A DNA stretch of 64,000 nt from Dehalococcoidia bacterium (GTDB taxonomy: Bacteria; Chloroflexota; Dehalococcoidia; Lucifugimonadales; G963668185), in NCBI GenBank assembly GCA_965249225.1, contig CBDFLT010000009.1:159593-223592 (forward strand), read 5' to 3'. Under the pieces are notes generated by a model. It worked only from the letters and a program-made list of their open reading frames with translations. It made no database searches and was not told the origin of the DNA. The position numbers were made by a program, and so were the translations under genes. Numbering within the stretch: position 1 is the stretch's first letter; each line of letters starts with the position of its first letter. Below, one piece after another: positions 18,247-54,998 of the stretch.

Positions 18247-19677
<1,431 letters not shown>

Positions 19678-19857: not shown

Positions 19858-21609
19858 CTATTCGTCGACAGTTACAATGTAAACGCCCTTGGCCCTGTCG
19901 AGGAGGGAGTTCTCGTAGCTATAGTGAGCGTAGATAAGAACCCGCTGCCTCCCATCGGTCAGCCGCTGGCGCGCGAAGGGAACCGGGTTCCATCCCACCA
20001 TCCTCAACAAGCGCGTCTTGCTCTCGACGGTGGATTGAAGGCCCTGGAAGTCGATGGTGAGGTAGTTGACGGTCATGGCGAAATCGTCTGCCACTTCCTT
20101 GCCGGTTAGTAGAATGGACATCGATCCGCGCTCACCAGAGGACGGAGGTTGACCAATAACCATCCAGGTCAACGCATGGTCCCAGGGGACGACCTTGGCG
20201 AAGCCCTCCGGATATTGAGCGAATTCGCCTCCGCTAACGTCGGCGACCCACAGACCCCCGCCCTGCTCCTCGAACCCGTACAGGACCGAGAAGAGGTATC
20301 CGTCGTCGCCGGTGAGATACGGAGAGTGGCTATAGAGATGCTCTGGACGATTTGTCTCCGTATCGGTCGGAAGCGGGTACTGGACAAGCTGGTAGGAGTC
20401 CGGATCATCGACATCCACCGTGTACACCGACTGCCAGCGCGGATCGGCCGACCCACCATCCGATGGGTCCGGCCAGCCCTCGGTGCTCAAAAGTAGGTAG
20501 GTAGAGTCCTCGCGCCGGATAGGCATGGCCGTCAGGATGGCGCCCGGCGCTACGTAGACCACTTCTGGATTGCGCATAGAGGGGTCGGTCCTTATCACGA
20601 GGTTACGCCGCTCTCTATCCGGCTCTTGGGGCCGCCATATAAGATGATATACTTCCTCACCCGCCTTGCGAGTCGCTCGCACTTGATCGCAGTCCCGCAG
20701 ACCTTCTACTCCCAGCGACTGCAGGCGGGCCTCTCGCCAGTACCGGTTGGTACCAAAGAACGTGGAATCACGGCCATGAGGCGCGGCAGACGCCTGGCCT
20801 ACCATCTCCATGAGAGACCCGCCTCCATTATTTGCATCCGGACCAGGAACGTTGGGAAGGAAGCCTATTGAAGTGAGGAGGTCCTGGTACGCGCGGGACG
20901 ACACGGCCTCACGGTAGATCTCGCACATCTTGGGGGCCAGATGCGCCGGGGGCTCTCTCTGCAATTCGAAGGGAAGGGCCAGTATCTCCTCCTCGTACTC
21001 GCGCGCAATTTGGGAGGTGCCTGACACCAGGGTCACGGCGTCCACGAGGAAGTGGGTTGGGCCGCTGGTCCCTGGTTTGGCGCTTCGCCACTCATCGGGT
21101 ATCCGGTCGGGTATCACCAGAAACGAGCCGTCGGGGAAGACCTCGCTGATAGTACCGGTCGTCTCTCGCCCAGGCCGGTACTCAAAGGTGATGCGGTGGA
21201 ATAGGGTACGGGCGCCCACGGGGTCCTGGAGTTTGCGCAACACGTCCCGGTCCAACGGCACTCCCAGGCGCCGGTGCAAACGCTCGACCTTTTGGCTGGG
21301 GTGCTCGCCGACAAGCTCAGATTCGATGGCCAGCAGGTCGAGATAACGGACCCCAGTCTCGTGTGAAAGCCGGACCTTTGCCCTGCCCTCCCACTCCACA
21401 ATCATCTCAGGAAGCCCAGCAACAGGAACCTGAACTCCGGACTCGGTCTCTGCCACGAACCCGGGTTTGACCAGTTGGGCCACCGAGGGTACGTCCACGT
21501 CCTCAGTGGAATCCCCTCCGCAAGCCAAGGCTAGAGCCAAGAAGGCTCCAAGCATGCTCAAGCACAAGGCCTTGGGAAGACTCGCGCCGCGGGAGTTCGA
21601 TCCACCCAT
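19858..21609 (-). CDS. Hypothetical secreted lipoprotein (no recognisable domain)
   Basis: ATG at 21609 is preceded by GAGGAGG. It has a signal peptide with a lipobox (LALALACGG). It lies ~120 nt downstream of the archaellin array on the same strand. Confidence 0.5.
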   Translation of the reverse strand: MGGSNSRGASLPKALCLSMLGAFLALALACGGDSTEDVDVPSVAQLVKPGFVAETESGVQVPVAGLPEMIVEWEGRAKVRLSHETGVRYLDLLAIESELVGEHPSQKVERLHRRLGVPLDRDVLRKLQDPVGARTLFHRITFEYRPGRETTGTISEVFPDGSFLVIPDRIPDEWRSAKPGTSGPTHFLVDAVTLVSGTSQIAREYEEEILALPFELQREPPAHLAPKMCEIYREAVSSRAYQDLLTSIGFLPNVPGPDANNGGGSLMEMVGQASAAPHGRDSTFFGTNRYWREARLQSLGVEGLRDCDQVRATRKAGEEVYHLIWRPQEPDRERRNLVIRTDPSMRNPEVVYVAPGAILTAMPIRREDSTYLLLSTEGWPDPSDGGSADPRWQSVYTVDVDDPDSYQLVQYPLPTDTETNRPEHLYSHSPYLTGDDGYLFSVLYGFEEQGGGLWVADVSGGEFAQYPEGFAKVVPWDHALTWMVIGQPPSSGERGSMSILLTGKEVADDFAMTVNYLTIDFQGLQSTVESKTRLLRMVGWNPVPFARQRLTDGRQRVLIYAHYSYENSLLDRAKGVYIVTVDE

Positions 21610-21731
21610 CTCGCGCCTCCTCACCCGTGCCTCTGCCGAGCCTCCTCCGCGAGACCAGTCATGTCGCCCGGCGCAGAGCCAATTGGAGAACGCCACAGCC
21701 CAACGCATGTGTTACCCGGTAACGGACTCCG

Positions 21732-22325
21732 CTAATTCAAGTCCATGACCGTGGTAAGCTCGACCGGGGTTTTCCGTTGAAGGTTCAATACTGCGCCGAC
21801 GGCCGGCTTGAGCTGGATGGTGAACTCTTTGTCGGTCGTCAGCTTTGTGGTTATCCCCGAGATATCGGCGTCGATCTCAACGGTCTCTCCAGGGTTGACC
21901 AGGCTGCCACTGCCGGACAGCCAGGTGGGCGTCCAGGTGGACAGGTTTACGCTCTGGTCGGCGTCTATATATGTGACGACCGCCGCGTTGACGCCCGACG
22001 TGGACAGGTTTACAGCCGCCCCGCTTTTCGAGGCGTTGGTCACCTGGAACTTGATGTTGGTGACGTTGGACGGAGTGCTGGTGGATATGGCGATGACGGA
22101 GCCCCGCAATACCAGCGTAGACGACACCTCCTCGAGAGAACCCAGGATCGTTTGCTTGCTCTTCTCCGAGCTAAGCAGCCCCGTGCTCAAAATCGTGAAG
22201 GCGAACACCGACGCCACCACCACGAACGCGATGAGCACAATAGCCGTCTCTAGGCCAGTGATGCCCCGTTGGCCGTGCACGACCCGGAGGAATGACCTGC
22301 CCACTGACCTGAGAGTTGGTTTCAT
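21732..22325 (-). CDS. Archaellin-type (archaeal flagellin / class III signal peptide) protein, paralog 1
   Basis: ATG at 22325 is preceded by GAGGAGAG. N-terminus ...GQRGITGLETAIVLIAFVVVASVFAFTILSTGLLSSEKSKQTILGSLEE. Conserved C-terminus KEFTIQLKP.VGA. Confidence 0.8.
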   Translation of the reverse strand: MKPTLRSVGRSFLRVVHGQRGITGLETAIVLIAFVVVASVFAFTILSTGLLSSEKSKQTILGSLEEVSSTLVLRGSVIAISTSTPSNVTNIKFQVTNASKSGAAVNLSTSGVNAAVVTYIDADQSVNLSTWTPTWLSGSGSLVNPGETVEIDADISGITTKLTTDKEFTIQLKPAVGAVLNLQRKTPVELTTVMDLN

Positions 22326-22460
22326 CTGGGCACTCTCCTCTGATGATTGACCCTGGACCCTCTTTATCGCTCTAATGCCGAGGGCCGACCACCCGAGAAC
22401 ATCTCTGAGATGACCGGCCCCGATGAGCCGAAAGGCCACGGCTCGCAGGAGGGTATAATT

Positions 22461-23021
22461 CTAATTGAAGTCTATTATCGTAGTCAGCTCAGCCGGGGTC
22501 GTCCTGCTCACTATCAGCGACGCGCCCACGTTGGGCTTGAGCTGGATGGTGAACTCCTTGTTTGTGCTGAGCTTGGTGGTTAACCCCGAGATATCGACGT
22601 TGATCTCCACCGTCTCTCCGGGGTTGACCAGGGAGGAGCTGCCCGTAAGCCAGGTAGCTGTCCAGCTGGTCAAGTTCGAGGACTGGTCGGCGTCTACATA
22701 GGTCACGATGGCCGAGTTAACGCCCGACGTTGCCAGGTTCACAGCCTCACCGCTCTTTGAGGCGTTGGTCACCTGGAATCTGACATCTGTAACGGTGAAC
22801 GGTGTGCTGGTGGATATCCCCAACACTGAGCCGCGAATGACCAGCGTCGCGGCCGCCTCTTCCAGTCCACCGATTATGGTCTCCTTGCTCTTCTCAGAGC
22901 TAAGCAGCCCCGTGCTCAACACCGCGAAGGCGAACACCGACGCCACCACCACGAACGCTATGAGGACGATGGCCGTCTCAAGCCCCGTGATCCCCCTCTG
23001 GTCGTTCTCTACCTTTGCCAT
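22461..23021 (-). CDS. Archaellin-type protein, paralog 2
   Basis: Probable start MAKVENDQRGITGLETAIVLIAFVVVASVFAFAVLSTGLLSSEKSKETIIGGLEE. Conserved C-terminus NKEFTIQLKPNVGASL. Confidence 0.8.
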   Translation of the reverse strand: MAKVENDQRGITGLETAIVLIAFVVVASVFAFAVLSTGLLSSEKSKETIIGGLEEAAATLVIRGSVLGISTSTPFTVTDVRFQVTNASKSGEAVNLATSGVNSAIVTYVDADQSSNLTSWTATWLTGSSSLVNPGETVEINVDISGLTTKLSTNKEFTIQLKPNVGASLIVSRTTPAELTTIIDFN

Positions 23022-23191
23022 CCGCCCCGTTGCCCATGTAAATAATCGTTTCACTTCGGACTTACCCCCATTCTGCGTTTTTGTCTTTGTTTCCGCTCTC
23101 CAAACGTGCCCTTCAGCCACCACCTACTCGGTCTTACCGGGCCCGACTTTTGCGCCTAAAGCCTGATGAAAGACCGCACCTTCGATTACCG

Positions 23192-23794
23192 CTAGTTCAG
23201 GTCGATTACCGCGGTCAGCTCCGCCGGGGTCGTCCTGGTTATCAGCAGCGTCGCGCCCACGTTGGGCTTGAGCTGAATGGTGAACTCCTTGTTTGCATTT
23301 AGAGGTGTGGTCGAGGCCAGGGTGGACAGATTGACCAAGACCTCCACCGACTCACCGGGGTTCACCAGATCGCCACTCCCCGTCAGCCACGTAGGAGTCC
23401 ACTGGGTTATGTTGAGGACCTGGTCGGAGTCGATGTAGGTGACGATGGCCGAGTTGAGGCCTGAATTGGACAGGTTCACGGCCTCTCCGCTCTTCGACGC
23501 GTTGGTCACCTGGAACTTGACGTCCTGTATCTGGGTGGCCGTGCTCGTGTCTCGTGTGGCGAGAATAGAACCTCGGATCACCAGCGTCGCGGCCGTCTCC
23601 TCCAGTCCGCCGATTATGGTCTCCTTGCTCTTCTCAGAGCTAAGCAGCCCCGTGCTCAGCACCGCGAAGGCGAACACCGACGCCACCACCACGAACGCTA
23701 TGAGGACGATAGCCGTCTCAAGCCCCGTGATCCCCCGTTGATCTTGTCTCAGATTGAGGCTTGGTCTCGTTACGCCCTTTACTAACCTTTTCAT
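23192..23794 (-). CDS. Archaellin-type protein, paralog 3
   Basis: ATG at 23794 is preceded by GAGGAAGG (an alternative ATG is at 23809). N-terminus ...QDQRGITGLETAIVLIAFVVVASVFAFAVLSTGLL, near identical to paralog 2 at the DNA level. Confidence 0.8.
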   Translation of the reverse strand: MKRLVKGVTRPSLNLRQDQRGITGLETAIVLIAFVVVASVFAFAVLSTGLLSSEKSKETIIGGLEETAATLVIRGSILATRDTSTATQIQDVKFQVTNASKSGEAVNLSNSGLNSAIVTYIDSDQVLNITQWTPTWLTGSGDLVNPGESVEVLVNLSTLASTTPLNANKEFTIQLKPNVGATLLITRTTPAELTAVIDLN

Positions 23795-23821
23795 TTGATC
23801 CTTCCTCATAAGGGGTTTGCC

Positions 23822-24415
23822 CTATTGCAGGTCCATCACCTGAGTCAACTCGGCCGGAGTCTTCCGGCTCACCACCACCACGGCCCCTACCGTGGGCTTC
23901 AGCTGTACTGTGAACTCTTTGCCAGCTCCCAACTTGGTAGCCAGCCCTGAAACGTCCACATCGATCTCGACCGTCTCCCCAGGGTTTACCAGAGGACCGC
24001 TTCCCGCTAGCCAAGTCGCCGCCCACGAGCTCGAGTTGACAGACTGGTCATCGTCAATATAGGTGAGAATGGCGGCGTCGAGGCCGGAGGCCGACAGATT
24101 TACGCTCTCACCGCTTCGGGAGGCGTTGGCCACCTGAAACTGGATGTTGGTGACGCTGAACGGAGTGCTGGTGGATGTGGCGACGACCGATCCCTTCAGC
24201 ACCAGGGTGGCGGATGTCTCCTCGAGAGCGCCGATTATGGTCTGTTTGCTTTTCTCGGAGCTAACGAGCCCAGTGCTCAAAATTGCAAAGGCGAACACCG
24301 ACGCCACCACCACGAACGCGATAAGGACGATAGCGGTCTCGAGACCTGTGATTCCCCGCTGGTCATCCCAGGTAGGCCTAGCGATCCCGCCCGGCCCACT
24401 CACTACGTGGCCCAA
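23822..24415 (-). CDS. Archaellin-type protein, paralog 4
   Basis: TTG start at 24415 is preceded by GAGGGGG. N-terminus ...DDQRGITGLETAIVLIAFVVVASVFAFAILSTGLVSSEKSKQTIIGALEE. Confidence 0.75.
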   Translation of the reverse strand: MGHVVSGPGGIARPTWDDQRGITGLETAIVLIAFVVVASVFAFAILSTGLVSSEKSKQTIIGALEETSATLVLKGSVVATSTSTPFSVTNIQFQVANASRSGESVNLSASGLDAAILTYIDDDQSVNSSSWAATWLAGSGPLVNPGETVEIDVDVSGLATKLGAGKEFTVQLKPTVGAVVVVSRKTPAELTQVMDLQ

Positions 24416-24576
24416 ATTACCCCCTCTTTCACGCGTCTGCTGGAAACCGGCGTTTCCGATCTCGACTGAAGGCTAGGTACTAACCTGGATTCCATATTAG
24501 CGGCTTCCACACACCGGGTACAGAGTGTTTGCCCACATGTTTTGTTGGGGGGTAGCGGAGTGAATCAGGGACTTCC

Positions 24577-24595
24577 CCCCACAGGCCCTGTGGGG
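24577..24595. promoter_or_regulatory. Perfect 9-bp inverted repeat with 1-nt spacer (CCCCACAGG-C-CCTGTGGGG) in the divergent archaellin / response-regulator intergenic region
   Basis: Read directly from the sequence. It could be an operator or a leader hairpin; the function is unknown. Confidence 0.3.
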
Positions 24596-24705
24596 TTCCA
24601 CTGTCGGGCCATGGGTGCTAGCACCTATTCGGTACGTGCCGGCATTGAAGAGCCGCGCACCCGATTGGGGCCGGTGGCACCCGGTGTACTGGGGCAAAGC
24701 CTGGC

Positions 24706-24735
24706 TTGCGGCGACGGCGACTACGCTCGTATAAT
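24706..24735 (+). promoter_or_regulatory. Candidate sigma-70 promoter for the response-regulator gene
   Basis: TTGCGG, an 18-nt spacer, then TATAAT. A GAGGAAG RBS lies 8 nt before ATG 24774. Confidence 0.35.
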
Positions 24736-24773
24736 GGCCTCTCGTAATAGACCCGTTTGAGGAAGCTCCCGCA

Positions 24774-25376
24774 ATGCCACCCGCGGATGCTCAGGGAAAA
24801 GTCAAAGTTCTCCTAGTCGAGGATGAGGACCTTTACAGGGACCTCCTTGGCGCGGCCCTGTCTCAGCAAGATCGCTTCGAAGTGATCGGCGCGTTCTCCG
24901 ACGGGAAAGAGGCCCTGGAGGCTGCCGCAACTCTGAAGCCAGACGTCGCGATCCTTGATATCGAGTTGGGAAGCGGTATGAACGGGATTCAAGTGGGGTT
25001 ACTGCTACGCAGGGAGCTGCCCGACATGGGAATCATCCTGCTCTCCAACCACGGAGACCCGCAATTCGTGTCCTCACTTCCCAAGGAAGCGATCACCGGC
25101 TGGTCCTACCTTCTGAAGAAAACCGTCTCTGACATCTCCGCGCTTGGGCGGGCGATAGAAGGCGCCGTATCCGGCTTCGTGGTGCTCGACCCTCAGATCG
25201 TGGAGGCGGCCCAGCCCAAGTCGGGAGGTCTGCTATCTAAGCTCACGCCCCGCCAGTTCGAGGTAGGGCGTGACGATGGATCGGTACAGCCCAGAGTGAA
25301 GGCGGTGCTTACGTTTCTCCGTGAAAGCCAGGCCCTGGGGGGCGGATTCACCACCCCGGAGACGGGCACCGAATAG
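24774..25376 (+). CDS. NarL/FixJ-type response regulator with incomplete LuxR-type HTH
   Basis: REC domain (VLLVEDEDL, DVAILDIELG, the K in SYLLKK). The output domain starts LTPRQFEV but lacks the expected L.L.A.G.SNKEIA helices. Confidence 0.7.
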   Translation: MPPADAQGKVKVLLVEDEDLYRDLLGAALSQQDRFEVIGAFSDGKEALEAAATLKPDVAILDIELGSGMNGIQVGLLLRRELPDMGIILLSNHGDPQFVSSLPKEAITGWSYLLKKTVSDISALGRAIEGAVSGFVVLDPQIVEAAQPKSGGLLSKLTPRQFEVGRDDGSVQPRVKAVLTFLRESQALGGGFTTPETGTE

Positions 25377-25478
25377 TACCATAGACACGTCACCTCCACC
25401 GGGGAATTTCTATGAAGAGGATCACGTGTGTCGACTCGGGGTCTTTGGCATCGGCGTCCACAAAAAGAGGAAGGCGCG

Positions 25479-25841
25479 ATGAACCGTAAGATCATGCTTG
25501 TGGACGATGAGCCTGATTTCGTTGAGTTGGCGAAGGACCTCCTGCAACACGAACCCGACCTCACGGTCGTGGGTCACGCGGCAAGTGGCAAGGAGGCGCT
25601 CGCACTCCTCCCAACGTTGAAGCCAGAGGTCGTAATCCTGGATGTCAACATGCCGGAGATGGGTGGGTTCGAGGTAGCGGGGCGGTTGTTGAACGTCAGT
25701 CCTTCGACGAAGGTGATATTAGTAAGCACCATCGACGATCCCCAATACGACTCCATGGCGCAGTCGGTCGGGGCAGCGGCGTTCCTGACAAAGAAGAGGT
25801 TCTCGGCTGAGGCGGTACTAGCTGCCCTTAACCAGACCTAG
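25479..25841 (+). CDS. Single-domain CheY-like response regulator
   Basis: MNRKIMLVDDEPDF, VVILDVNMPEMGG and FLTKK. ATG at 25479 is preceded by AAGAGGAAGG. Confidence 0.8.
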   Translation: MNRKIMLVDDEPDFVELAKDLLQHEPDLTVVGHAASGKEALALLPTLKPEVVILDVNMPEMGGFEVAGRLLNVSPSTKVILVSTIDDPQYDSMAQSVGAAAFLTKKRFSAEAVLAALNQT

Positions 25842-25892: not shown

Positions 25893-27056
25893 TCACACCG
25901 CCGTGCGATTGTTGTCCCCGGCAACCGCCGGGACTGTCGCATTAGGCTCTAGGTTTCTAAGGGGCAGACGGACGCTGAGCCGTGTCCCTGCCGGGGGACC
26001 TAATGTGCTCTGGATGTCCCAGGTGCCTCCCGTCACGCCAACACGGTCCTCGATAGCGTTCAGGCCGAATCCCAGCTCCATCTGGGATGTGTCGAAGCCG
26101 CGGCCGTCGTCCTTGATCGACATCTCGAGGATCCGGCCCTCGTCAACTCCAAGGCTGACCTCCACCGAACTGGCCTTGGCGTGTCGGCGCACGTTGTTCA
26201 AACCCTCCTCAAGAATCCTGTATGCCACGAGGCGCACTTCCTCGGGTATCCGGTTCTCTACAGGGTCATCCAGCTTCACCAACTCCGGGCTGGATTGCAA
26301 TGAGACACTCAGGTCTTCTTTCATCTGAGCAAGGAGGCTACGCACGGCGGGCAGTAAGCCGATGCGGATTATGGAGGGATGTAAGAGGTGGCTGGCCTGT
26401 CTGACCTCCCGCTCCCGAATTTGCTCCACCTCATCCCTGATCCGCACAAGGAGTTTTTTCGCTTCCGCGGGGTCCGAGTCCAACATCGCCTCACATTCAC
26501 CCAGGCGGTGCCAGGCGAGGAGTAGGCTCGTCTGGACTCTACCGTGGAGCATCTCGGCGATCTCCTTGCGAACCGAATCCTCCGCGGTGGTGATCCGCTC
26601 TCTCGATCGCCTCAAGTCATCTTCGGCACGCACGCGGGTGGTCACCTCGAGGCTCAGTTGACGGTTGGCCTCCCGTAGCTCTTCGACCCTTCGCTCGACC
26701 CGGTTCTCCAGCTCCAGGTTAGCGAACTCCAACTCGTCGCGCTGCTTTGAGATCGTTCGCCACCCTCTCCACACGATAAATACCAGGCCGCCATACGTGA
26801 TGATGAAGCCACCGCCCAACGTTCCGTACGTCACCGACCTGAGGTTGCGCAGGTCACGGCTGATTTCTGAGATAGACTGCCGATTAGCCACTTGTCCAGC
26901 CCCAGTAGGAGCGCCAAACGTCTGCTGTTCCAGGGTCTCGAGATCACTGTTGAGTCCCACGGTAATGACCACTGAAATGACCACACCGAGCACCACCATG
27001 ATCACGCCGCCGAGGACGCAAAATCGGACGAGTAGATTTTCGTTTCGATCGTTCAC
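25893..27056 (-). CDS. Membrane sensor histidine kinase (HisKA_3 + HATPase_c)
   Basis: Two N-terminal TM helices, a coiled coil, an H-box EMLHGRVQTSLLL, LHPSIIRIGLLPAVRSL, an N-box LEEGLNNVRRHA, G1 DDGRGF and G2 GFGLNAIEDRV. Confidence 0.8.
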   Translation of the reverse strand: MNDRNENLLVRFCVLGGVIMVVLGVVISVVITVGLNSDLETLEQQTFGAPTGAGQVANRQSISEISRDLRNLRSVTYGTLGGGFIITYGGLVFIVWRGWRTISKQRDELEFANLELENRVERRVEELREANRQLSLEVTTRVRAEDDLRRSRERITTAEDSVRKEIAEMLHGRVQTSLLLAWHRLGECEAMLDSDPAEAKKLLVRIRDEVEQIREREVRQASHLLHPSIIRIGLLPAVRSLLAQMKEDLSVSLQSSPELVKLDDPVENRIPEEVRLVAYRILEEGLNNVRRHAKASSVEVSLGVDEGRILEMSIKDDGRGFDTSQMELGFGLNAIEDRVGVTGGTWDIQSTLGPPAGTRLSVRLPLRNLEPNATVPAVAGDNNRTAV

Positions 27057-27445: not shown

Positions 27446-28021
27446 TCACGGGTTGGCGTTCAGCCACGCCTCGATGTTGCCAAAGTACTTCTGAAGCTCC
27501 TCCTCCAATCGGGGGCCGGGGTCTATATAGGTAAACCCTCCGTTCGTCCCCTTACCGGTGTTGGGGGCAAAGCCGTATTTGCCGACCAGGGACGCCATCT
27601 GCCGCTTCGCCTCCTGGAGGTCCAGGCAAGGTTCCGACTGCCCTGGTGCCACGGGGTCTCTGCCGCAATGAGTGATTATCAGGCCGTCGATGTTGGTCCG
27701 CACGATGGGTCGCTCCCCATCGTCGATACGGGTCTTATAATCGATTGGGGCCAGCGTGCCATCCTGGAGCTGCTGGAACAGCTGCTCAAGCCTGCCTTTG
27801 ACCGCCTTGAGATCGTCAAAGATGGCCTGGACGGTCGCAGGTTCGAGATCGGGGCGTTCCGATGGTGGTATGGGAATGGACGTGGCAACCACCACTCCCT
27901 TGTCGGGCTCATCGTGGGTCAGCGACGACGGCAAGGGAGCTTCGAGGGAGGAAGAGCAGCCGCCCCACGCTACCGCTAATACGATCAGTGCCAATATGGG
28001 GAGTAAGCGCATGTGTGACAC
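27446..28021 (-). CDS. Hypothetical lipoprotein
   Basis: Signal peptide with a lipobox (LAVAWGGCSS). No recognisable domain. Confidence 0.45.
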   Translation of the reverse strand: MSHMRLLPILALIVLAVAWGGCSSSLEAPLPSSLTHDEPDKGVVVATSIPIPPSERPDLEPATVQAIFDDLKAVKGRLEQLFQQLQDGTLAPIDYKTRIDDGERPIVRTNIDGLIITHCGRDPVAPGQSEPCLDLQEAKRQMASLVGKYGFAPNTGKGTNGGFTYIDPGPRLEEELQKYFGNIEAWLNANP

Positions 28022-29214: not shown

Positions 29215-30438
29215 ATGGCCGGGCAAACTAATGGTCACTCCGACGGTAGGCCTCCCGAGCTGATCGAGAATCATCGGCAAGGACGGATACTGGAGCGGTC
29301 ATTCTACACCGATCCGGCCGTGTTCGAGCTTGAGGCGGAGAAGATCTTCCACAAGTACTGGCTCTACGCCGGGCACGTCAGCCAGATACCGAATCCGGGC
29401 GACTACTTCCTCCGAAATGTCCTGGACGAGTCGTTGATAATCATCCGGGGCGACGACGGCCAGGTGCACGCCCTGTACAACGTCTGCCGTCATCGGGGTT
29501 CGCAGATCTGCTGGGAAGAAACCGGCCATATGGGCAACCTGGTATGTCCCTACCATGCCTGGGTCTACAAGCGGGACGGGTCGCTCAAGCACGCCCGGCT
29601 GTTTCCCGAGGACTTCGACAAGTCGCGGTTCGGGCTCCACCGTGCGCCTGTGGAGGTCCTGGAGGGGTTCATCTTCTTCAGCCTGTCGAACGAACCGGTC
29701 GACTTCGAACCCGTTTCGAGAGACCTCCGACCGCATCTGGAGTGGCATGACTTCGGTAGTGCCAAGGTGTGCCACACTGAGTACCTCGATCTCCATGCCA
29801 ACTGGAAGATCCTCAACGAGAACGCGCGCGAATGCTACCACTGCGGCCCGGCCCACCCCGACTTGTGCAGGGCCGTACCGTTCGCCGCGGCAACCGGCGC
29901 TCCGAAATACGTGCCGGAAGAAGAGCGACTTAACAAGCTCGCGGAGGCCCGATGGAGCGAGATTGGCCTACCCGCCCGAATGGTCGACCAGACGGTCGAG
30001 ACCTGGTACCAGGCTTTCCGCCTCCCCCTCTTCGAGAGTCACGTCAGCTTCACCCTGGATGGCCGAGCGGTGGCGCCCCTGATGGGATACTTCGAGCGAC
30101 CGGAGGACGCAGGGCAGCTGACCATGGGCATCCTTCCAACGTTTTGGTTTGAAGCCAGTTCAGACTACGCCGTGGTGATGTGCTTTACACCGGCGGAGCC
30201 GGCCCTGACGAAGCTTAAGATGGACTGGCTGGTCCGTGGAGATGCGGTCGAGGGCCGTGACTACCAGGTGGAGCAATTGACGGAGATGTGGCGAGTAATT
30301 AGCGGGCAGGACTGGCAGCTATGCGAAGGAGCCCAGGTAGGGATCAGCTCTCGCCACTACGCGCCCGGGCCCCTGGCAGGTGTCGAGTCGTGGCTTGATA
30401 CGCTGGTCCAGTGGTATCTAGGTCAGTTGAAGAGCTAG
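29215..30438 (+). CDS. Rieske [2Fe-2S] aromatic-ring-hydroxylating oxygenase alpha subunit-like protein
   Basis: Rieske motif CRHRGSQIC...CPYHAW, with a C-terminal catalytic SRPBCC-like domain containing ECYHCGPAH. Confidence 0.8.
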   Translation: MAGQTNGHSDGRPPELIENHRQGRILERSFYTDPAVFELEAEKIFHKYWLYAGHVSQIPNPGDYFLRNVLDESLIIIRGDDGQVHALYNVCRHRGSQICWEETGHMGNLVCPYHAWVYKRDGSLKHARLFPEDFDKSRFGLHRAPVEVLEGFIFFSLSNEPVDFEPVSRDLRPHLEWHDFGSAKVCHTEYLDLHANWKILNENARECYHCGPAHPDLCRAVPFAAATGAPKYVPEEERLNKLAEARWSEIGLPARMVDQTVETWYQAFRLPLFESHVSFTLDGRAVAPLMGYFERPEDAGQLTMGILPTFWFEASSDYAVVMCFTPAEPALTKLKMDWLVRGDAVEGRDYQVEQLTEMWRVISGQDWQLCEGAQVGISSRHYAPGPLAGVESWLDTLVQWYLGQLKS

Positions 30439-31663
30439 GGAACCTCTGAATAACCCTTCATATGCTGGATTGAATTGATTGCAGGGGTAGTTCGAAGATG
30501 TTCAATTCTTTGCGATGGCCCATCAGGCTGTTGCGGCCCTAAATCGGGTCTGTTTGGGCTTCGAAAGCGGGCTCTGCCGGGGGCGTGTCGCCGCTATCAA
30601 CCTGATTTGGGCGCACTTCTCTCTCGTCACACCGCCAAGTGGCGCTCGGCTGTCATCAAGTTGGCAAACCCCAGCAGCAACGCCAGCCGTTGCGTGTTCT
30701 TGGCCAGTCCACGATACCGCACCTTGGCGTAGCCAAAGTGACGCTTCACATACAGGAACGGATGCTCCACCTTCGCCCTGACCGACGCCTTGCGCTTCTC
30801 CGCCAACGCCTCCTCGCTTTCAGGTGCTAGCTGCCGACGCCGACCGGGCTTCATCGCCACGCGCCACTCCACATCCAACTCTCGGTTCTCCTCCCGCTTA
30901 TCGACTCCCTGATACCCCGCATCGCCCCACACCCGCGTCTCTCCACCGTGTAGTAACCGGTGAGTTTCGGTCACGTCATGCACGTTCGCTGATGTCATAG
31001 CTACACTATGCACCACCCCTGTCTCTTCGTCCGCCCCGATGTGCACCTTCATACCGAAGCTCCACTTGTTGCCCTTCTTGGTCTGGTGCATCTCTGGGTC
31101 ACGCTCCCGGGCACGGTTCTTAGTCGACGACGGCGCCTCGATGATGCTCGCGTCCACTATAGTCCCCTCCCGAAGACGAAGCCCCTGAGTCTCCAGGTGG
31201 ACGTTGATGGTCTTGAACAGACCTTCGCCAAGATCGTGCTCCTCCAGCAAGTGGCGGAAGTTCAGGATCGTCGTCTCGTCAGGCAGAGGGCCCGACAGCC
31301 TCAGGCCCACGAATCGCCTCACCGACTCGACCTCGTATAGCATGTCTTCCATCCCAGGGTCGCTCAGGTTGTAGAACAGCTGCACGCAGTGTATGCGAAG
31401 CATCGCCGACAGCTCATACGGATGCCGGCCTCGGCCAGCCTCGGGATAGTATGGTCGAATGCGACTCTCCAACTGTCCCCACGGTATCAGACCGTCCATG
31501 CGCTCCAGAAACAGCTCCCGCCGAGTCTTGCGCTTCTTACACTCGTACTCCAGGTCCGCAAATGTCGGCTGGTTCATCTACTCTTGCTCCCGTCCTTAGT
31601 CAGTTCGTCTCCACTTGTCATGGTACTATGCCACCATAATCCACGGACTTGTTCAGAGTATCC
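30439..31663 (-). mobile_element. IS5-family insertion sequence, complete copy (1225 bp)
   Basis: Terminal inverted repeats GGAACCTCTGAA / GGATACTCTGAA (10 of the first 12 nt match, resembling the IS5 GGAAGGTGCGAA ends). Flanked by a 4-bp direct repeat CTAG at 30435-30438 and 31664-31667. Encodes a single transposase. Confidence 0.9.
30627..31577 (-). CDS. IS5-family DDE transposase
   Basis: 316 aa, strongly similar along its length to E. coli IS5 transposase as I recall it (TFADLEY, RPYYP..GRGRHPY, MLRIHC.Q..YNLSD, IIEAPSSTKN..RERDPEMHQTKKGN.W.FGMK.HIG, VEHPF...K..FG..K.RY.GL.KN). Confidence 0.9.
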   Translation of the reverse strand: MNQPTFADLEYECKKRKTRRELFLERMDGLIPWGQLESRIRPYYPEAGRGRHPYELSAMLRIHCVQLFYNLSDPGMEDMLYEVESVRRFVGLRLSGPLPDETTILNFRHLLEEHDLGEGLFKTINVHLETQGLRLREGTIVDASIIEAPSSTKNRARERDPEMHQTKKGNKWSFGMKVHIGADEETGVVHSVAMTSANVHDVTETHRLLHGGETRVWGDAGYQGVDKREENRELDVEWRVAMKPGRRRQLAPESEEALAEKRKASVRAKVEHPFLYVKRHFGYAKVRYRGLAKNTQRLALLLGFANLMTAERHLAV

Positions 31664-41392: not shown

Positions 41393-41464
41393 TCGTCCAC
41401 CTGTCTTCTAGCTCAAGATGCAGAAGGAAGATTCCCCACATCAATATGACCTGCCACCGGTCTT

Positions 41465-42512
41465 TTAGTTCCTGAACGCGGGGATCACATGCTTCCCAAA
41501 TAGCTCTATGGACCGCATGGTCTTCTCGTGGGGCATCTGATCGCTCTGCATCATAAGGATGATCTGGTCGGCACCCGACTCCTGATGGCGCTTGACTCCT
41601 TCGATACAGCTTTCAGGGTCTCCAGCCACGATTATGCCCTGCTCGGAGAGGGTCCGGGCATCCAGTTCCCGAAAGACATCCAGTTCGAACTTTTTCGCTC
41701 CCTCTTCAAGGCCCGAGTCCTTGCCAAGCATGGTCCTGAAGGCCATTTCAAGATGGTCCGGAACACCACCCCAGGCGTTCAACAGATTTTTATATAAATC
41801 TACCTGGTCTCTCGAGTAAGGGCGGCCAGGGCCCATTGCGGCCTTAATGGCCTGGGCACCCAGCTCCTGCGCCTCTTCGTTATTGTCTCCACAGTGCCCT
41901 ACGGTGTAGTTTGCCCACTGATCGTTGATGAAAGCCCCCACCGGCTTGGCCCTCTTGACATCGGTCTTGTACTCTCGAATTTGCTCAGCCAGGGTAATCG
42001 GTGCGTAGGAGGAGTACGTCAGGACACCTACACCTTTCTCCGCGGCTATCTTATACATCACAGAATCGCGAAGTGGACACCCAGATAGGAGGATGAGGCT
42101 TCTGGAAAGGCTTGGGTTGAATGCGTCGAAGCGGGACATCTCAAAACCGGCCCTTCCATGAGAACTCATCCCTGAGCCATATTTGAGGTATCATTTCGAT
42201 GGCCTCCTCCCACATGGCCCGGGAGTCCCTGGGGTCTACACCGAATCCCTCGTGCTCATAGGCGGTACTGCGGCCGGTGCCGAACCCCAGCCGGATTCGC
42301 TTGGTTATCCAGCTCAGGGCACCGTAGACAACCTCTGGACAGGAGGACGCGGAGAAGGTGTTCAGGAAATGGTGCTCCGTAAACCACAGATATTCGAAGC
42401 CCACCTCGTCGGCGAGGACACACTGCTCCAGCGTTTCCTCCACCAGGCTGTTCTCGTCCACCACTCCATCGGAGAAAGGACGCTCCATCTCAAAGAGCAG
42501 TCCAAATTTCAT
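41465..42512 (-). pseudogene. Disrupted LLM-class flavin oxidoreductase gene
   Basis: The N-terminal (42141-42512) and C-terminal (41465-42169) pieces are in different frames. There is an in-frame TGA at 42141-42143. The canonical QPKPFQKPHPPIW motif (42081-42119) is readable only in the N-terminal frame after that stop. About 30 aa are missing after RIRLGFG relative to the intact paralog at 38929-39954. Confidence 0.7.
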
Positions 42513-42750
42513 GAGGGGTCTCCCGCCCGTACACGCCTAACGTTACTGAGCCGAAAATTACTATAGCGACTACCTTGCGGAAAAAGGGAAGGCGTATCCA
42601 GAATGAAGTAGAGCCTAGCACCGCCTCTTAGGGGTGTCAAACACTCGAAGACGGGCCCGACGCCGTCATTACCTGTGTCCATATAACTCTGTGCCATAAT
42701 GGAAGCATCGCCGAATTAGGATTCTGAAAATTTGGCGACGGGAGGCGACC

Positions 42751-44004
42751 GTGCCGAAACGAGTACATCACGTAGTAAGACGGCCGGGGAGGAGACCGGA
42801 AGACCCGGATGTGGAGATACCCGTCGCAGAAGACCTGGGCACAATCCCAGGCATCCCGCTAAGGGAACGGGACCTCTCCTTCTACAGCAGGGTATATCCT
42901 CTGGAAGACGTCGACTCAAATACCACCGCTGACATAGCATGGGGTCTTACCGTATTAAACGAGGAGATGGCTAAGCAGCGGAATAAGTATGACGAAATAT
43001 ACGATCGTGACGACAAAGAAGCGGACGTCTCTGGTGAATTGGAGCCTATGGCTCCGTCTGATCACACAAGAGACGTCACAGAGGACATTCGCCAAAAGGC
43101 CAGGGAGATAGGTTTCGGTGAGGTAGGATTCACCAAATACGATCGAAGGTACACATATACCACCAAAAAAACTTGGGCCAAGTTCGACCATGCTATCTGT
43201 TTGGCCCTGGAGCAGGACTACGTACAGACTGAAGCCACCCCCAGCATGGAGTCCGAGGAGGCCCACTTCGGCACCTATGAGATTGGAGCAGCCCTTTCTC
43301 TAAAGCTGGCTTCTTACATTCGCTCGATAGGCTACCACGCTCAGATCCACAGTCCTACAGATAGCAGCGGAGCCTATATACCCATGTTCGTGAGCGCCGG
43401 TCTGGGTCAACTGGGGGCCAACGGTCAGCTTCTGTCGCCTCACTTTGGGTCCCGGTCCCGGCTGACTATAGTCACTACCGACGCTCCGGTAAAGCACGAT
43501 AAACCGATAGACTACGGCATAAACAAATTCTGCCAGCTCTGCCAGGTATGCGTGAACCGCTGCCCCGGTCGAGCCTTGACTCGGGACAAGATTTGGTGGC
43601 GCGGCGCGGAGAAGAACAAGGTCATCTACAAGCAATGTTTTCCAATCATGTCCAGCTACGAGGGCTGTGGTGTCTGTATCAAGGTTTGCCCCATCCAGCG
43701 CTACGGAATGAAGCCGGTGATGGAGCACTATATTGCTACTGATCAAGTGCTGGGCAAGGGCACCCATAACCTGGAGGGTTACTCCATGCGGGGCAAGGTG
43801 TATTTCGGCCCCGGCGAAATGCCCCACTTCGACCGTCAGCTCTTCATGTTCCCTCACGGACTAAAGGAAGATGTGGTCTTCCACGAGTTCAAGAAGAAGC
43901 TGGACGAGGATGGTATGCCATCCAATGAAGAATTAACGGATTTCGCCACCAAGGTCGGAGAAATCCTAGAGGAAAAAACTTCCACTACCCGGTCGGGTAC
44001 CTAA
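42751..44004 (+). CDS. Reductive dehalogenase / QueG-superfamily Fe-S protein (cytoplasmic, no Tat signal)
   Basis: AGLGQLGANGQLLSP.FGSR.RL..V.TDAP...DKPIDYGINKFCQLCQVCVNRCP followed ~35 aa later by CGVCIKVCP. This is the hallmark two-cluster arrangement of RdhA/QueG. The start is uncertain (GTG 42751). Confidence 0.55.
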   Translation: MPKRVHHVVRRPGRRPEDPDVEIPVAEDLGTIPGIPLRERDLSFYSRVYPLEDVDSNTTADIAWGLTVLNEEMAKQRNKYDEIYDRDDKEADVSGELEPMAPSDHTRDVTEDIRQKAREIGFGEVGFTKYDRRYTYTTKKTWAKFDHAICLALEQDYVQTEATPSMESEEAHFGTYEIGAALSLKLASYIRSIGYHAQIHSPTDSSGAYIPMFVSAGLGQLGANGQLLSPHFGSRSRLTIVTTDAPVKHDKPIDYGINKFCQLCQVCVNRCPGRALTRDKIWWRGAEKNKVIYKQCFPIMSSYEGCGVCIKVCPIQRYGMKPVMEHYIATDQVLGKGTHNLEGYSMRGKVYFGPGEMPHFDRQLFMFPHGLKEDVVFHEFKKKLDEDGMPSNEELTDFATKVGEILEEKTSTTRSGT

Positions 44005-44031
44005 AGCCAGTAAGGTCTATCTCTTAAACAA

Positions 44032-44244
44032 GTGGTCAAACGAGGTCAGTTCGAAAAGAAACACCTGGATGCTCTGTATGAGGAGCTGAGGCGAAACTGG
44101 AAGGGAAAAACAGAGTACGAACAGCTACTTCGAGACCTCAATTTGGGCGTTGCCCTCTTTGATGCTGGCCGCCCCATAAGCAATGAGATAGATCCCAGGG
44201 TGATAGCTCTTATAGAGAAACACAAACCCCAAAAGCAGCTTTGA
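44032..44244 (+). CDS. Small hypothetical protein (70 aa)
   Basis: ORF only, charged and helical in composition. It is followed directly by repeat copy A. Confidence 0.3.
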   Translation: MVKRGQFEKKHLDALYEELRRNWKGKTEYEQLLRDLNLGVALFDAGRPISNEIDPRVIALIEKHKPQKQL

Positions 44245-44251
44245 CCTGCCC

Positions 44252-44295
44252 CCGGTTAAGGTCGGGGCACCCCTTATAGTACGGAGCGTCATGCC
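44252..44295 (+). repeat. 44-bp direct repeat, copy A
   Basis: CCGGTTAAGGTCGGGGCACCCCTTATAGTACGGAGCGTCATGCC. It matches copy B with a few substitutions and a 1-nt indel. Confidence 0.8.
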
Positions 44296-44297
44296 TG

Positions 44298-44735
44298 GTG
44301 GCCGTGGCCGTTGGCGCCGAGAGCCCTGTACGCAACGCCTGGGGTGCCTACGACATGAAGGCACCCGATGGCACGAAGATTGAGGTCAAGTCCGCTGCGT
44401 ACGTACAGTCCTGGCATCAGAAAGAGCTCTCGAGAATACAATTCGGTATCAAGAAAACCCTGGAGTGGATGCCCGAGACCAATGATTTCGGCAAAGAGAA
44501 GAAACGGCAATCGGACGTATACGTCTTCTGCCTGCTGGCACAGAAGGAAAAACGCCAGGTCGATCCGCTAGACCTGGAGCAGTGGGAGTTCTACGTCATT
44601 CCGACTTCGGTTCTTGATACCCAATTCGGAGACAGGCAGAGTATTTCACTAAGTAAGGTGACCGCTCACAGCCAGGCCTGCAACTTCCACCAGTTGGGAG
44701 AAGCGGTGAGAACAGCTTCAGCCTGGGCCGGTTAA
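44298..44735 (+). CDS. Hypothetical protein with PD-(D/E)xK nuclease-like motif
   Basis: 145 aa with a GTG start. YDMKAPDGTKIEVKSA fits D-x(n)-E-x-K and is followed by a hydrophobic strand DVYVFCLL. No family-level identification was possible. Confidence 0.4.
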   Translation: MAVAVGAESPVRNAWGAYDMKAPDGTKIEVKSAAYVQSWHQKELSRIQFGIKKTLEWMPETNDFGKEKKRQSDVYVFCLLAQKEKRQVDPLDLEQWEFYVIPTSVLDTQFGDRQSISLSKVTAHSQACNFHQLGEAVRTASAWAG

Positions 44736-44770
44736 GGTCGGAGCACCCCTCTATTACGGAATGTCATGCC
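44728..44770 (+). repeat. 44-bp direct repeat, copy B
   Basis: CCGGTTAAGGTCGGAGCACCCCTCTATTACGGAATGTCATGCC. It overlaps the stop codon of the 145-aa ORF and lies 100 nt from the tRNA-Arg 3' end. Confidence 0.8.
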
Positions 44771-44869
44771 CCGCATGGCAATTTGCAGACAGAAATCGTG
44801 TGCCGCAGCCCCGATTTCTTTCGTAGTATTGGGGACTAGCTTTTCCTGTCTATTAAGGCATGGAGGCCA

Positions 44870-44944
44870 TGGTACCCCTGCCGGGACTCGAACCCGGGCA
44901 CGCGGTTTAGGAAACCACTGCTCTATCCTCTGAGCTACAGGGGC
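44870..44944 (-). tRNA. tRNA-Arg (anticodon CCT), CCA encoded
   Basis: Hand-folded cloverleaf: acceptor GCCCCTG/CAGGGGT, D arm GCTC-AGAGGATA-GAGC, anticodon arm GTGGT-TTCCTAA-ACCGC, T arm CCGGG-TTCGAGT-CCCGG, 3' ACCA. Confidence 0.9.
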
Positions 44945-45101
44945 AAGCCTATCGGAATGGTCGAAACGCCTCCGCGTCCATATACTAGTGCATCGAGGCG
45001 GGCGACGCCAGCGGCTGGCGGTCCCGGCGCAGGCCCGCAGGCCACGCCATGGCATCTGGCAAAATCGAGCGGCGTGCTTCGAATCCTCCACGGTGGGGCG
45101 T

Positions 45102-46450: not shown

Positions 46451-46987
46451 ATGAGAAGCCGCGTTTTCCCGAAGGGCATGATTTTTGTCCTGCTTTTCTC
46501 CGTACTCTCGATCTTCGCTCTCATGGCCTGCGCGGGATCGGATGGTGACACGGGCGCTGACGGATCTGCGGGCGCCACGGGACCCGCCGGATCTGACGGA
46601 GCCACAGGATCTGCTGGACCTACGGGTCCTGCCGGATCTGCGGGCGCCACGGGCGCTGACGGATCTGCGGGCGCCACGGGACCCGCTGGACCTCCTGGTC
46701 CTCCTGGCCCGTCCGCGGACGCACCGGCCGCTAACCTGTTCGCCACGGGCGCAGAGCCGGGTGGAACCGCAACAGTCTGGGGGTCGGGATTCGCCGCCGA
46801 CGAGGCTGTCACTCTAGCCGTATCAGGCAGTGGTGGCCAGACGGTGCTTGGAAGCGCCGAGGCGAACGATAGTGGCGCCTTCGTTGCGGACGTAACCGCG
46901 GACCTAGACGCCGGAATTTATACCCTCCTTGCCCTCGGTGACGGCGGATCGGAAGCAACCGCCCCGCTGATGGTGGGCTCTAAGTAA
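46451..46987 (+). CDS. Collagen-like (Gly-X-Y) repeat lipoprotein with one C-terminal Ig-like module
   Basis: Lipobox LMACAG, about 19 uninterrupted GXY triplets ([19 protein letters not shown]...GPPGPPGP), then [16 protein letters not shown]...[21 protein letters not shown]. Confidence 0.8.
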
Positions 46988-47367: not shown

Positions 47368-48192
47368 ATGAGAACGCGAGTTTCCATGAATTGGATGGTT
47401 GTCGCCCCGCTATTATTTGCATTCTCGATAATCGTTCTCATGGCTTGTCGAGGACCAGAGGGCGAGCCTGGACAGCCCGGACTTCCCGGGAACGAAGGCG
47501 TGATTGGGCCACCGGGCTCTCAAGGTGACCCGGGCCTACCCGGCAATCCCGGCAACCCGGGCCCGCCTGGACTCGGCGGACCGGCAGGACCGCCAGGGGA
47601 AGCGGTCTCTCCTCAAGCCGTAATTACCCTAAACGAGAGCCGGCTGAGTATGTCCGACCCTGTGGAGGTCATGGGATCGGGCTTCATCGACGGCGAAGAG
47701 GTTACCGTCACCCTCGAAATCGATGGGACCCTCATTAGACTTGTCGGCACAGCAACGGCCAACGAGTCTGGCGCGTTCATCATCACCGCCGATGAGTTTG
47801 GCGGCGACGCGTCAACCAAATCGGCGGCGATCGGAGCACGGACCGTGCTCGCGGAAGGCTCAGAGGGAAGCAAGGCCAGCGTGCCCGTAATTATCACGGA
47901 AGCAACCCCACCCACTACTCCGCCCTCCGCCAGCCTGTTCGTGGAGCCAACGAAACCCACTGGGACATCCGCCGTCTGGGGAGCAGGCTTTCGCGCCGGG
48001 GAGCTGGTTACCATTACTGCGCTAACATCGAGCAGCGGAGGCCCGATTCTTGGAGCCATCGAGGCAAACGAAAACGGCTCCCTGAGCACGATAATTACTG
48101 TCGATTTGGACCCCGGAATCTACACTCTCAAGGCCGTTGGGGCAGCCGGTTCGGAGGCGACCGCGCCTCTGGTTATCTCCGAGAACAAGTAA
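47368..48192 (+). CDS. Collagen-like (Gly-X-Y) repeat lipoprotein with two C-terminal Ig-like modules
   Basis: Lipobox LMACRG, about 16 GXY triplets ([16 protein letters not shown]...GPAGPPGE), and two copies of the module seen in the paralog. The RBS/leader TCTTCCAAA.AGGGGGTCA.ATGAGAA is shared with gene 1. Confidence 0.8.
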
Positions 48193-49655: not shown

Positions 49656-51008
49656 TTACCGCTTTCTCTTTCTCTTGGGACGCACCTTTGCCGGGACACC
49701 TACCGCCAGCGAATCGGGGGGGACATCGTCGGTTACTACGGAGCCGGCCCCGGTTGACGATCGTGCCCCTATGGTCACAGGGGCTACCAACATGGAATCG
49801 GAGCCGATAAAGGCATCGTCCCCAATAGAGGTGTGGTGCTTGTTGACGCCGTCGTAGTTACAAGTGACGGTCCCAGCGCCGATGTTTACCTTGGAGCCGA
49901 GGTCGGCATCTCCGACATAACTGAAATGGGCCGACACCGTTCCCGGCCCTAGACGGCTGTTCTTGACCTCGGCGAAGTTGCCGATATGGACGCCGGTCTC
50001 AAGGAGGCTGCCCCACCGGATATGACTGAAGGGCCCCACTCCCACATCGTCCGCGAGCCTGGACTCCTCTACTACCGATGCCACGACACGGCAACGGTCA
50101 CCAATCGAAGAGTCGATGATCAGGGTATTCGGCCCCATCTCACAGAGAGAGCCGATCCGAGAGCTCCCCTTGATATGGGTGTTAGGGAGGATAACGGTGT
50201 CCGCGCCCAGTTCTACGCCCGCGTCTATGTACGCGGTAGCCGGGTCGGGCATGCTCACGCCGCGCAGCATCCACTCCTCTCGAATTCGCCGTCGGAGCTC
50301 GGCCTCTACCCCGGCCAGCTGGACCCTGGTGTTGACGCCGACGACCTCATGCGGATCGCTGGTCTGCACGGTCTCCACATGGAGACCGTGTTGGGTTGCA
50401 ACCGATGCCAAGCCGGTAAGGAATATCTCTCTGACGGACGACGGGGCGATTCCTTTGAGGGCTTCCCAGAGCCATTCGGTCTGGAAGCCGTAGATCCCGG
50501 CGTTTACCTCGGAAATCGCCAGCGTTCTCTCGTCGGCCTCACTCTCCTCCACGACCGCCGTTACGCGACCCGAATCGTCTCTAGTCACCCTCCCGAAACC
50601 GTCTGGGCGGTCCAGGGTCGAGGTCAGCATGATGATGCGGAGATCACCTTCCGTTTGAAGCCGCATTATGCGCTTGAGGGTGTCAGGACGGATAAGAGGC
50701 ACGTCGCCGGACAATACGGCGACGGATTCGACCCCAGCAAGGAACGGCTCAGCCTGGAGCAGGGCGTGGCCGCTTCCAAGGGGTTCTGATTGCTCCGCGT
50801 AGGTGACACCATCACCCAGCGCGTCCCGGATGGCCTGATAGTCGGATGGAACGACCACCACGATGGGCGTAAAGCCCGCATCGCGGGCCGCGTCAACGAC
50901 CAGACCGACCATTGGCCGGCCACAGACCGGATGAAGCACCTTGGGGGTGCTGGACTTCATACGGCTACCCTTGCCAGCGGCGAGAACAACGGCTGCGGAT
51001 GTGGCCAT
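49656..51008 (-). CDS. glmU: Bifunctional UDP-N-acetylglucosamine diphosphorylase / glucosamine-1-phosphate N-acetyltransferase
   Basis: VVLAAGKGSRMKS, YAEQSEPLGSGHA, and C-terminal left-handed beta-helix hexapeptide repeats. Confidence 0.9.
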   Translation of the reverse strand: MATSAAVVLAAGKGSRMKSSTPKVLHPVCGRPMVGLVVDAARDAGFTPIVVVVPSDYQAIRDALGDGVTYAEQSEPLGSGHALLQAEPFLAGVESVAVLSGDVPLIRPDTLKRIMRLQTEGDLRIIMLTSTLDRPDGFGRVTRDDSGRVTAVVEESEADERTLAISEVNAGIYGFQTEWLWEALKGIAPSSVREIFLTGLASVATQHGLHVETVQTSDPHEVVGVNTRVQLAGVEAELRRRIREEWMLRGVSMPDPATAYIDAGVELGADTVILPNTHIKGSSRIGSLCEMGPNTLIIDSSIGDRCRVVASVVEESRLADDVGVGPFSHIRWGSLLETGVHIGNFAEVKNSRLGPGTVSAHFSYVGDADLGSKVNIGAGTVTCNYDGVNKHHTSIGDDAFIGSDSMLVAPVTIGARSSTGAGSVVTDDVPPDSLAVGVPAKVRPKRKRKR

Positions 51009-54915: not shown

Positions 54916-54998
54916 AGAACAGGCCCTCCTCCCACTTGACTTCCTCAGGGTGGACGGTACACCCTAGACGGACACGGTAGCCCCGCGAGGGAGTTTGT

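Follow-up and report, generated by a model that had tools for sequence, protein, structure and literature searches.

The 64-kb window analyzed here, a 64,000-nucleotide stretch of contig CBDFLT010000009.1, contains at positions 21732 to 24415 a block of flagellin-like genes of the archaeal type. This block is very probably a tandem array of four paralogous archaellin (arlB) genes, belonging to a horizontally acquired, archaeal-type archaellum system in a member of the Chloroflexota of the Dehalococcoidia/SAR202 type.

Gene models and divergence of the four arlB copies

The array consists of four intact open reading frames (ORFs), lying in tandem on the minus strand, with outer bounds that match those of the block exactly. 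The first gene, arlB4 (23822 to 24415), has a TTG start codon and encodes a 197-amino-acid pre-archaellin with a leader ending in DDQRG|ITGLE (where the bar represents the predicted cleavage site); it is followed by arlB3 (23192 to 23794; 200 amino acids, leader ending in QDQRG|ITGLE), arlB2 (22461 to 23054; 197 amino acids, GTG start) and, as the last gene, arlB1 (21732 to 22325; 197 amino acids). In all four cases, the true start is located downstream of the start of the longest ORF, and the resulting products are, residue for residue, identical to the public gene calls (NCBI and ENA) P0012, P0001, P0003, and P0009, respectively. A purine-rich, Shine-Dalgarno-like motif (GAGGGGG in the case of arlB4) precedes each of the four starts by 5 to 10 nucleotides, as had been proposed in a preliminary description of the locus that was made from the sequence alone. 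The motif that was reported there to be shared by all ORFs was recovered as well: the four archaellins have an overall protein identity of 65 to 71% and have in common an invariant N-terminal block, QRGITGLETAIVLIAFVVVASVFAF...LSTGL.SSEKSK.TI.

Since the copies show pairwise nucleotide identities of 63 to 90% and a synonymous divergence (dS) of 0.56 to 1.4, they are old paralogues and not the product of an assembly duplication. The ratio of nonsynonymous to synonymous divergence (dN/dS) was 0.14 to 0.30 in all pairs, and the four copies are under purifying selection. For one pair, divergence was unevenly distributed: the 5' parts of arlB2 and arlB3, which encode the helix, were 90% identical at the nucleotide level, with a dS of 0.12, versus 74% and 0.79 for the parts encoding the globular domain. 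This difference is suggestive of gene conversion acting locally in the array (22461 to 23794), homogenizing the 5' parts of these two genes. Finally, a fifth archaellin (P0008; 196 amino acids), encoded on an 84,424-bp contig present in both NCBI and ENA, was 66 to 70% identical to the four proteins of the window and may come from a different contig of the source genome.

Protein family, leader peptide, and fold

All four proteins matched the Arch_flagellin family (PF01917) over model positions 1 to 161 of 162, with scores of 67 to 76 bits, far above the gathering score of 29.5 bits (E values of 3.6e-18 for arlB4, 6.5e-21 for arlB3, 2.3e-19 for arlB2, and 5e-19 for arlB1). Similarly, all four matched the N-terminal domain shared by archaellins and type IV pilins (TIGR02537, arch_flag_Nterm), with 28 to 32 bits against a cut-off of 20 bits. 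In contrast, none of the four matched the profiles of bacterial type IV pilins (including N_methyl), Flp, or the flagellin N and C domains, even at an E value of ≤1, ruling out that these are bacterial pilins, Flp proteins, or flagellins. The preliminary description, which had called the four genes archaellin-like and unlike FliC, type IVa pilins, or Flp, was therefore correct on both counts.

With arlB3 as the query, the best solved relative by sequence was chain 9i5h_C (identical to 9sie and 9sii; E = 7.8e-31), with residues 22 to 199 of arlB3 aligning to residues 1 to 182 of that chain. These entries (9I5H/9SIE/9SII) show the archaellum of the bacterium Litorilinea aerophila, solved by cryo-electron microscopy (cryo-EM) (Sivabalasarma et al., Nat Microbiol 2025, PMC12488501). 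The best archaeal relative of known structure followed at an E value of 2e-18, versus 8e-31 for the bacterial chain, and the crenarchaeal archaellin of Aeropyrum pernix ranked second among solved structures. Thus, while the reported likeness to crenarchaeal FlaB/ArlB holds as far as the archaellin family is concerned, the closest relatives are not crenarchaeal but are archaellins of other Chloroflexota.

The L. aerophila chain also provides a reference point for the leader peptide. Its mature ArlB is reported to begin at Ile29, with a class III signal peptide preceding it, and the chain begins with ITALETAI, which aligns to ITGLETAI in the window proteins. Because the mature L. aerophila chain begins at the equivalent residue, cleavage of the window proteins is predicted, by homology, to take place at QRG|ITGLE. 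The hallmarks of a class III leader, i.e., a short, charged leader, a glycine at position −1, and a hydrophobic helix immediately following, are all present, and together with the TIGR02537 match, they bear out the class III cleavage context that had been read from the sequence.

An AlphaFold2 model of arlB3 (pLDDT, the predicted local distance difference test score, of 80) contained a helix spanning residues 24 to 65, followed by nine strands in a beta-sandwich. When this model was compared to the PDB with Foldseek, the L. aerophila archaellin came first (41% identity), and the top 17 matches were all archaellin chains, 16 of them archaeal (E values of 6e-13 to 3e-07), among others from A. 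pernix, Methanocaldococcus villosus, Methanospirillum hungatei, and Halobacterium salinarum. FlaF and unrelated immunoglobulin-like folds ranked below these 17 chains. Comparison of models with solved ArlB structures, one of the checks suggested in the preliminary description, thus led to the same family as the profile searches.

Host and contig integrity

The primary-type sigma-70 factor encoded at 18247 to 19677 has named relatives exclusively in Chloroflexi, Dehalococcoidia, SAR202, or Ardenticatenaceae, with the best nonself match being 67% identical. When one genome for each GTDB species was scanned with an alignment as the query, 460 archaellin-encoding places were obtained (a single-protein query found none). 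The best 80 of these were all located in Chloroflexota, mostly in metagenome-assembled genomes (MAGs) of Dehalococcoidia or SAR202 but also including the cultured "Ca. Lucifugimonas marina" JH545, with identities of 37 to 59%. Accordingly, no GTDB species representative has an archaellin more than 59% identical to those of the window, and the nearest metagenomic protein shares 78% identity. Other genes in the window point in the same direction: a 5'-3' exonuclease was 68% identical to its counterpart in a Dehalococcoidia MAG (locus L011), a DUF1501 protein was 55% identical to that in another (L005), and a DUF1800 protein was 75% identical to its counterpart on L001, the metagenome contig that bears the closest accessible archaellin. 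Because the relatives of sigma-70, the best 80 archaellin loci, and these other window genes all point there, we assign the host, as judged from sequence relationships, to the Chloroflexota, of the Dehalococcoidia/SAR202 type.

The composition of the contig showed no break at the array. GC content ranged from 0.575 to 0.62 across the block, compared to approximately 0.60 for the window, and the tetranucleotide distance of the block from the window mean (z ≤ 1.8) was below that of two other segments (3.6 to 6.3 kb and 41.4 to 45 kb), in line with the continuity that was to be checked according to the preliminary description. With composition unbroken and the genomic context conserved in relatives, the idea of a chimeric contig was rejected.

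Motor-linked and motor-detached arlB loci

In archaea, arlB arrays are normally located directly upstream of arlCDE/X-F-G-H-I-J. The order found here on the 3' side of arlB1 is different, with a lipoprotein without recognized domains, sigma-70, and RtcB, and there is no single locus of the arlCDE-arlG/F-arlH/I/J type. We surveyed 81 sequences, including the window, with a profile of 32 archaellins and with the ArlH and ArlI proteins of L. marina as probes. ArlH/ArlI were encoded within 10 kb downstream of arlB in about one-third of the surveyed loci, while the remaining loci contained arlB only; among these, L002, L011, L040, L043, L048, L050, and L065 have between three and six arlB genes in an array. 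L081, additional to the 81 surveyed sequences, is another arlB-only array, with four genes. Both kinds of locus were found side by side in the genomes CBDFKS01 (motor-linked L028 versus L040), CBDFKU01 (motor-linked L041 versus detached L038), and JADFFS01. The closest accessible relative with a long context, the 725-kb metagenome contig L002, carries a tandem run of five arlB genes, with one more close by, and shares with the window the arrangement of regulator, kinase, and arlB array described below. A motor-detached arlB array is, then, a described feature of the SAR202 clade.

Two other loci in the collection have an organization of their own. On the 3.2-Mb contig_7 of CBDFJV01, a related Dehalococcoidia MAG (L083, 10001 to 18654), a single motor-detached arlB gene is located approximately 2 kb from a bacterial type IV pilus cluster, which lies on the other strand and encodes an N_methyl pilin, an FHA/PilM protein, T2SSF, and an MshEN-T2SSE ATPase. 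On ctg494919 of the metagenome ERZ26167216, in another MAG of that metagenome (L082, 6065 to 13076), one full arlB gene is motor linked, being located upstream of a gene for an ArlI-type ATPase; two short archaellin-like ORFs (87 and 92 amino acids), also upstream of the ATPase gene, resemble fragments of a disrupted copy.

A two-component system next to the array

Divergently oriented from the array, a response regulator of the NarL/LuxR family is encoded on the plus strand (24774 to 25376), in which Pfam recognized the receiver domain only. Apart from a 37-amino-acid gap, it is 60% identical to its orthologue next to the arlB array of L002. It is followed, on the same strand, by a single-domain response regulator (25428 to 25841; 137 amino acids, receiver domain only, PF00072 with an E value of 3.8e-23), the association of which with the array is one of position only. 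Next, on the minus strand, comes a membrane histidine kinase (25893 to 27056; 387 amino acids, with a HATPase_c domain) that is 49% identical to the kinase at the arlB side in L002 and 35% identical to that in L003 and is the probable partner of the NarL-type regulator. The 358 bp that separate arlB4 from the divergent regulator gene (24416 to 24773) are, on the basis of their position, presumed to contain the promoter and operator of the array. A scan of 21.4 to 24.9 kb for sigma-70 promoter and terminator consensus sequences returned nothing above chance level, although Chloroflexota promoters may not fit the consensus.

The regulator is not particular to this window. Upstream sequence was available for 72 arlB arrays, and 14 of these have a NarL-type regulator within 1.5 kb upstream (L002, L003, L012, L028, L032, L035, L047, L060, L064, L065, L070, L077, L078, and the window itself), divergently oriented in all but one. 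This set includes the cultured SAR202 strain JH545 and several motor-linked loci. Only four comparable regulator matches were found in the remaining 1.2 Mb of these loci, corresponding to a nominal enrichment P value of approximately 1e-18, for loci that are not phylogenetically independent. To our knowledge, a bacterial NarL-type two-component system does not normally accompany the arlB arrays of archaea, and we found no mention of the linkage in the literature on Chloroflexota archaella that was checked.

Proposed function of the array

On the basis of these findings, we propose the following model. Pre-archaellins would be produced with a short, basic class III leader, which a PibD/ArlK-type prepilin peptidase, encoded elsewhere, would remove by cutting after the glycine of QRG. 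The mature protein, starting at ITGLETAI, would then place its hydrophobic N-terminal helix in the core of the filament, with the beta-sandwich facing outward. The ArlI ATPase and the ArlJ platform, with ArlH and ArlF/G, would be encoded at another locus and would polymerize the subunits and subsequently rotate the filament for swimming. The four diverged copies might serve as major and minor, or as alternative, filament subunits. The histidine kinase and NarL-type regulator next to the array probably control its transcription, the regulator lacking, in this genome, its DNA-binding domain.

Several observations weigh against this model. Genes for ArlH/I/J, ArlF/G, and ArlCDE are absent from the 64-kb window, and no Peptidase_A24 gene was present among the window ORFs scanned; in Chloroflexota, the prepilin peptidase is reported to be encoded outside the archaellum locus and to be PibD-like in SAR202. 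In addition, no protein of the 917,650-bp source contig, one of several in the genome, appeared among the best 120 of 7,145 ArlI matches; these 120 each shared 58% identity or more with the query. The archaellins themselves lack, in pairwise alignment to L. aerophila ArlB, a five-residue loop containing the metal ligand D121, and, in the same alignment, only E134 is invariant, corresponding to the glutamate of NPGE (both in the mature numbering of L. aerophila ArlB). Moreover, the 37-amino-acid gap in the NarL-type regulator is a clean, in-frame deletion of 111 bp that removes exactly the GerE/LuxR helix-turn-helix. Finally, cultured SAR202 strains with a full archaellum gene cluster showed neither archaella nor motility (Lim et al., Nat Commun 2023, PMC10444878).

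The lack of motor genes within 64 kb would also fit a genome without ArlI/J, in which archaellin-like subunits form a nonrotating adhesive or structural fiber or are assembled by a Tad or type IVa machinery, rather than forming a rotary archaellum. In support of this, neither the source contig nor the 3.2-Mb contig of CBDFJV01 was represented among the best 120 ArlI matches, and the latter has arlB at two places, one of which is the gene approximately 2 kb from the type IV pilus cluster (N_methyl pilin, PilM, T2SSF, and T2SSE). We nevertheless consider such orphan subunits unlikely: every archaellin hallmark has been kept, under purifying selection; related genomes and a cultured SAR202 strain have detached copies alongside complete motor loci; motor-linked loci, too, contain this regulator-arlB module; and the ArlI evidence extends to only the best 120 of the 7,145 matches. 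More specifically, multigene arlB arrays under NarL-type two-component control might have no cognate ArlI/J at all, with the subunits being exported and polymerized by a Tad or type IVa machine into a nonrotary fiber. While this version strikes us as very unlikely, it would, if true, amount to a chimeric bacterial-archaeal filament system.

The deletion in the regulator raises the question of whether the array has been silenced or is decaying, with its genes unexpressed, possibly no motor left to serve, and the reading frames still intact only because little time has passed since the loss. This helix-turn-helix deletion is unique to the window copy among the 14 orthologous, arlB-linked regulators, and two fully identical IS5 copies in the window (described below) point to recent flux in the genome. 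On the other hand, none of the four genes has a damaged reading frame, leader, or Shine-Dalgarno motif, and dN/dS stays well under 1; loss of the regulator domain could equally result in constitutive expression, and the deletion is known from the assembly alone. We therefore regard decay as quite unlikely. As for an archaeal fragment misjoined into a bacterial contig during assembly, which is raised only because the family is otherwise archaeal, no support was found at all. Not only the steady composition of the block but also the placement of its closest relatives, all on Chloroflexota contigs, several of which are 0.7 to 3.2 Mb long, and the recurrence of the regulator-kinase-arlB arrangement on an independent contig of 725 kb argue against such an artifact, and we consider it effectively refuted. 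A tandem arlB array of an acquired archaellum system thus remains the explanation that we favor.

Other features of the window

The flanking genes that the preliminary description had recognized as bacterial were all confirmed. Besides sigma-70, these are glmU (49656 to 51008), two genes encoding lipobox proteins (19858 to 21708 and 27446 to 28021), and two encoding IS5-type transposases (30627 to 31577 and 63085 to 63957). The first of the lipobox genes is located directly 3' of arlB1, on the same (minus) strand, and might possibly be cotranscribed with the array. Its product (approximately 580 to 616 amino acids; lipobox LALAC|GG) had no Pfam match and no homologue in 80 related loci (L001 to L080). 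Furthermore, the window contains genes for a UPF0182 protein, arginine biosynthesis, RtcB, the 5'-3' exonuclease, and ABC transporters, as well as two tRNA genes; no rRNA gene was found in its 64 kb.

The two IS5-family copies (30436 to 31542 and 62894 to 64000, the second being cut off by the end of the window) are 100% identical over 1,107 bp. Their transposases contain DDE_Tnp_1 and DUF772 domains, and a 316-amino-acid transposase with the same Pfam domains is encoded on the closest relative contig, L001. The strongest composition outlier in the window is the segment from 41400 to 45000, with a GC content of 0.54 versus 0.60 and a tetranucleotide z of up to 3.2. This segment, which encodes a 234-amino-acid product without a recognized domain and a 417-amino-acid 4Fe-4S protein and which ends at a tRNA-Arg(CCT) gene (44870 to 44944), may be an integrated island. 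Slightly downstream, two neighboring genes on the plus strand (46451 to 46987 and 47368 to 48192) both encode products with collagen triple-helix repeats. Lastly, three consecutive plus-strand genes (53833 to 56938) encode a myo-inositol-1-phosphate synthase, a GT4 glycosyltransferase, and a CDP-alcohol phosphatidyltransferase, in what looks like a cluster for the synthesis of inositol phospholipids or glycolipids.

Comparison with known archaella

Archaellum genes were described in a Chloroflexi MAG (Hug 2013, as cited in the later papers), and they have since been reported in cultured SAR202 isolates (PMC10444878). Most recently, a study covering 3,780 Chloroflexota genomes identified archaella in 243 and presented cryo-EM and motility data on L. 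aerophila, which assembles an archaellum filament and swims with it and which is the only member for which rotation-driven swimming was shown (PMC12488501). In the published phylogeny, the Chloroflexota system derives from euryarchaeal donors with arl2-type clusters. Archaellum-like loci therefore do exist in Chloroflexota, as the preliminary description had stated, but they are well documented by now, and the novelty of the present array had been overrated.

The window proteins share with L. aerophila ArlB not only family, fold, and phylum but also the cleavage register (I-T-x-L-E-T-A-I), with an identity of 39 to 43% over the mature protein, and both belong to the same horizontally acquired, arl2-type system. 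In L. aerophila (Caldilineales), however, arlB is part of one locus with the motor genes, whereas the four copies in the window stand alone. Besides the D121 loop, which the window proteins lack in the pairwise alignment, the two also differ in that function was demonstrated there and is proposed for the window array. Another known system is that of the cultured SAR202 strain "Ca. Lucifugimonas marina" (L070), which has six tandem flaB genes adjoining flaGFHIJ and six scattered copies (PMC10444878). Its class, Dehalococcoidia, is also the one named for the majority of the closest MAGs, and it resembles the window in having tandem, multicopy flaB/arlB, additional flaB genes apart from flaGFHIJ, and, upstream of the array, a NarL-type regulator in divergent orientation. 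Nevertheless, protein identity is only approximately 37%, the six-gene array is directly followed by motor genes, and the strain was grown in culture without filaments or motility being seen. The archaeal ArlB/FlaB proteins of A. pernix (7TXI), M. hungatei (5TFY), and M. villosus (7OFQ), finally, have in common with the window proteins the Pfam family, the class III leader, an N-terminal helix followed by a beta-sandwich, and an organization in multicopy tandem arrays, but identities are limited to 16 to 27% and the hosts are archaea.

In summary, Chloroflexota archaella have already been published, including tandem arlB genes and copies away from the motor (PMC10444878; PMC12488501), and the window represents a further, fairly divergent example: one more case of archaellum transfer from Archaea to Chloroflexota, by which no concept is changed. 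It does support the notion that motor-detached, multicopy arlB arrays are normal in SAR202-type genomes. Only the regulator-arlB linkage and the helix-turn-helix deletion may be new. The linkage, observed across Chloroflexota and in some cases extending to the kinase, suggests that an imported archaeal machine has been placed under bacterial two-component control, and the regulator variant without a DNA-binding domain could be a natural test case.

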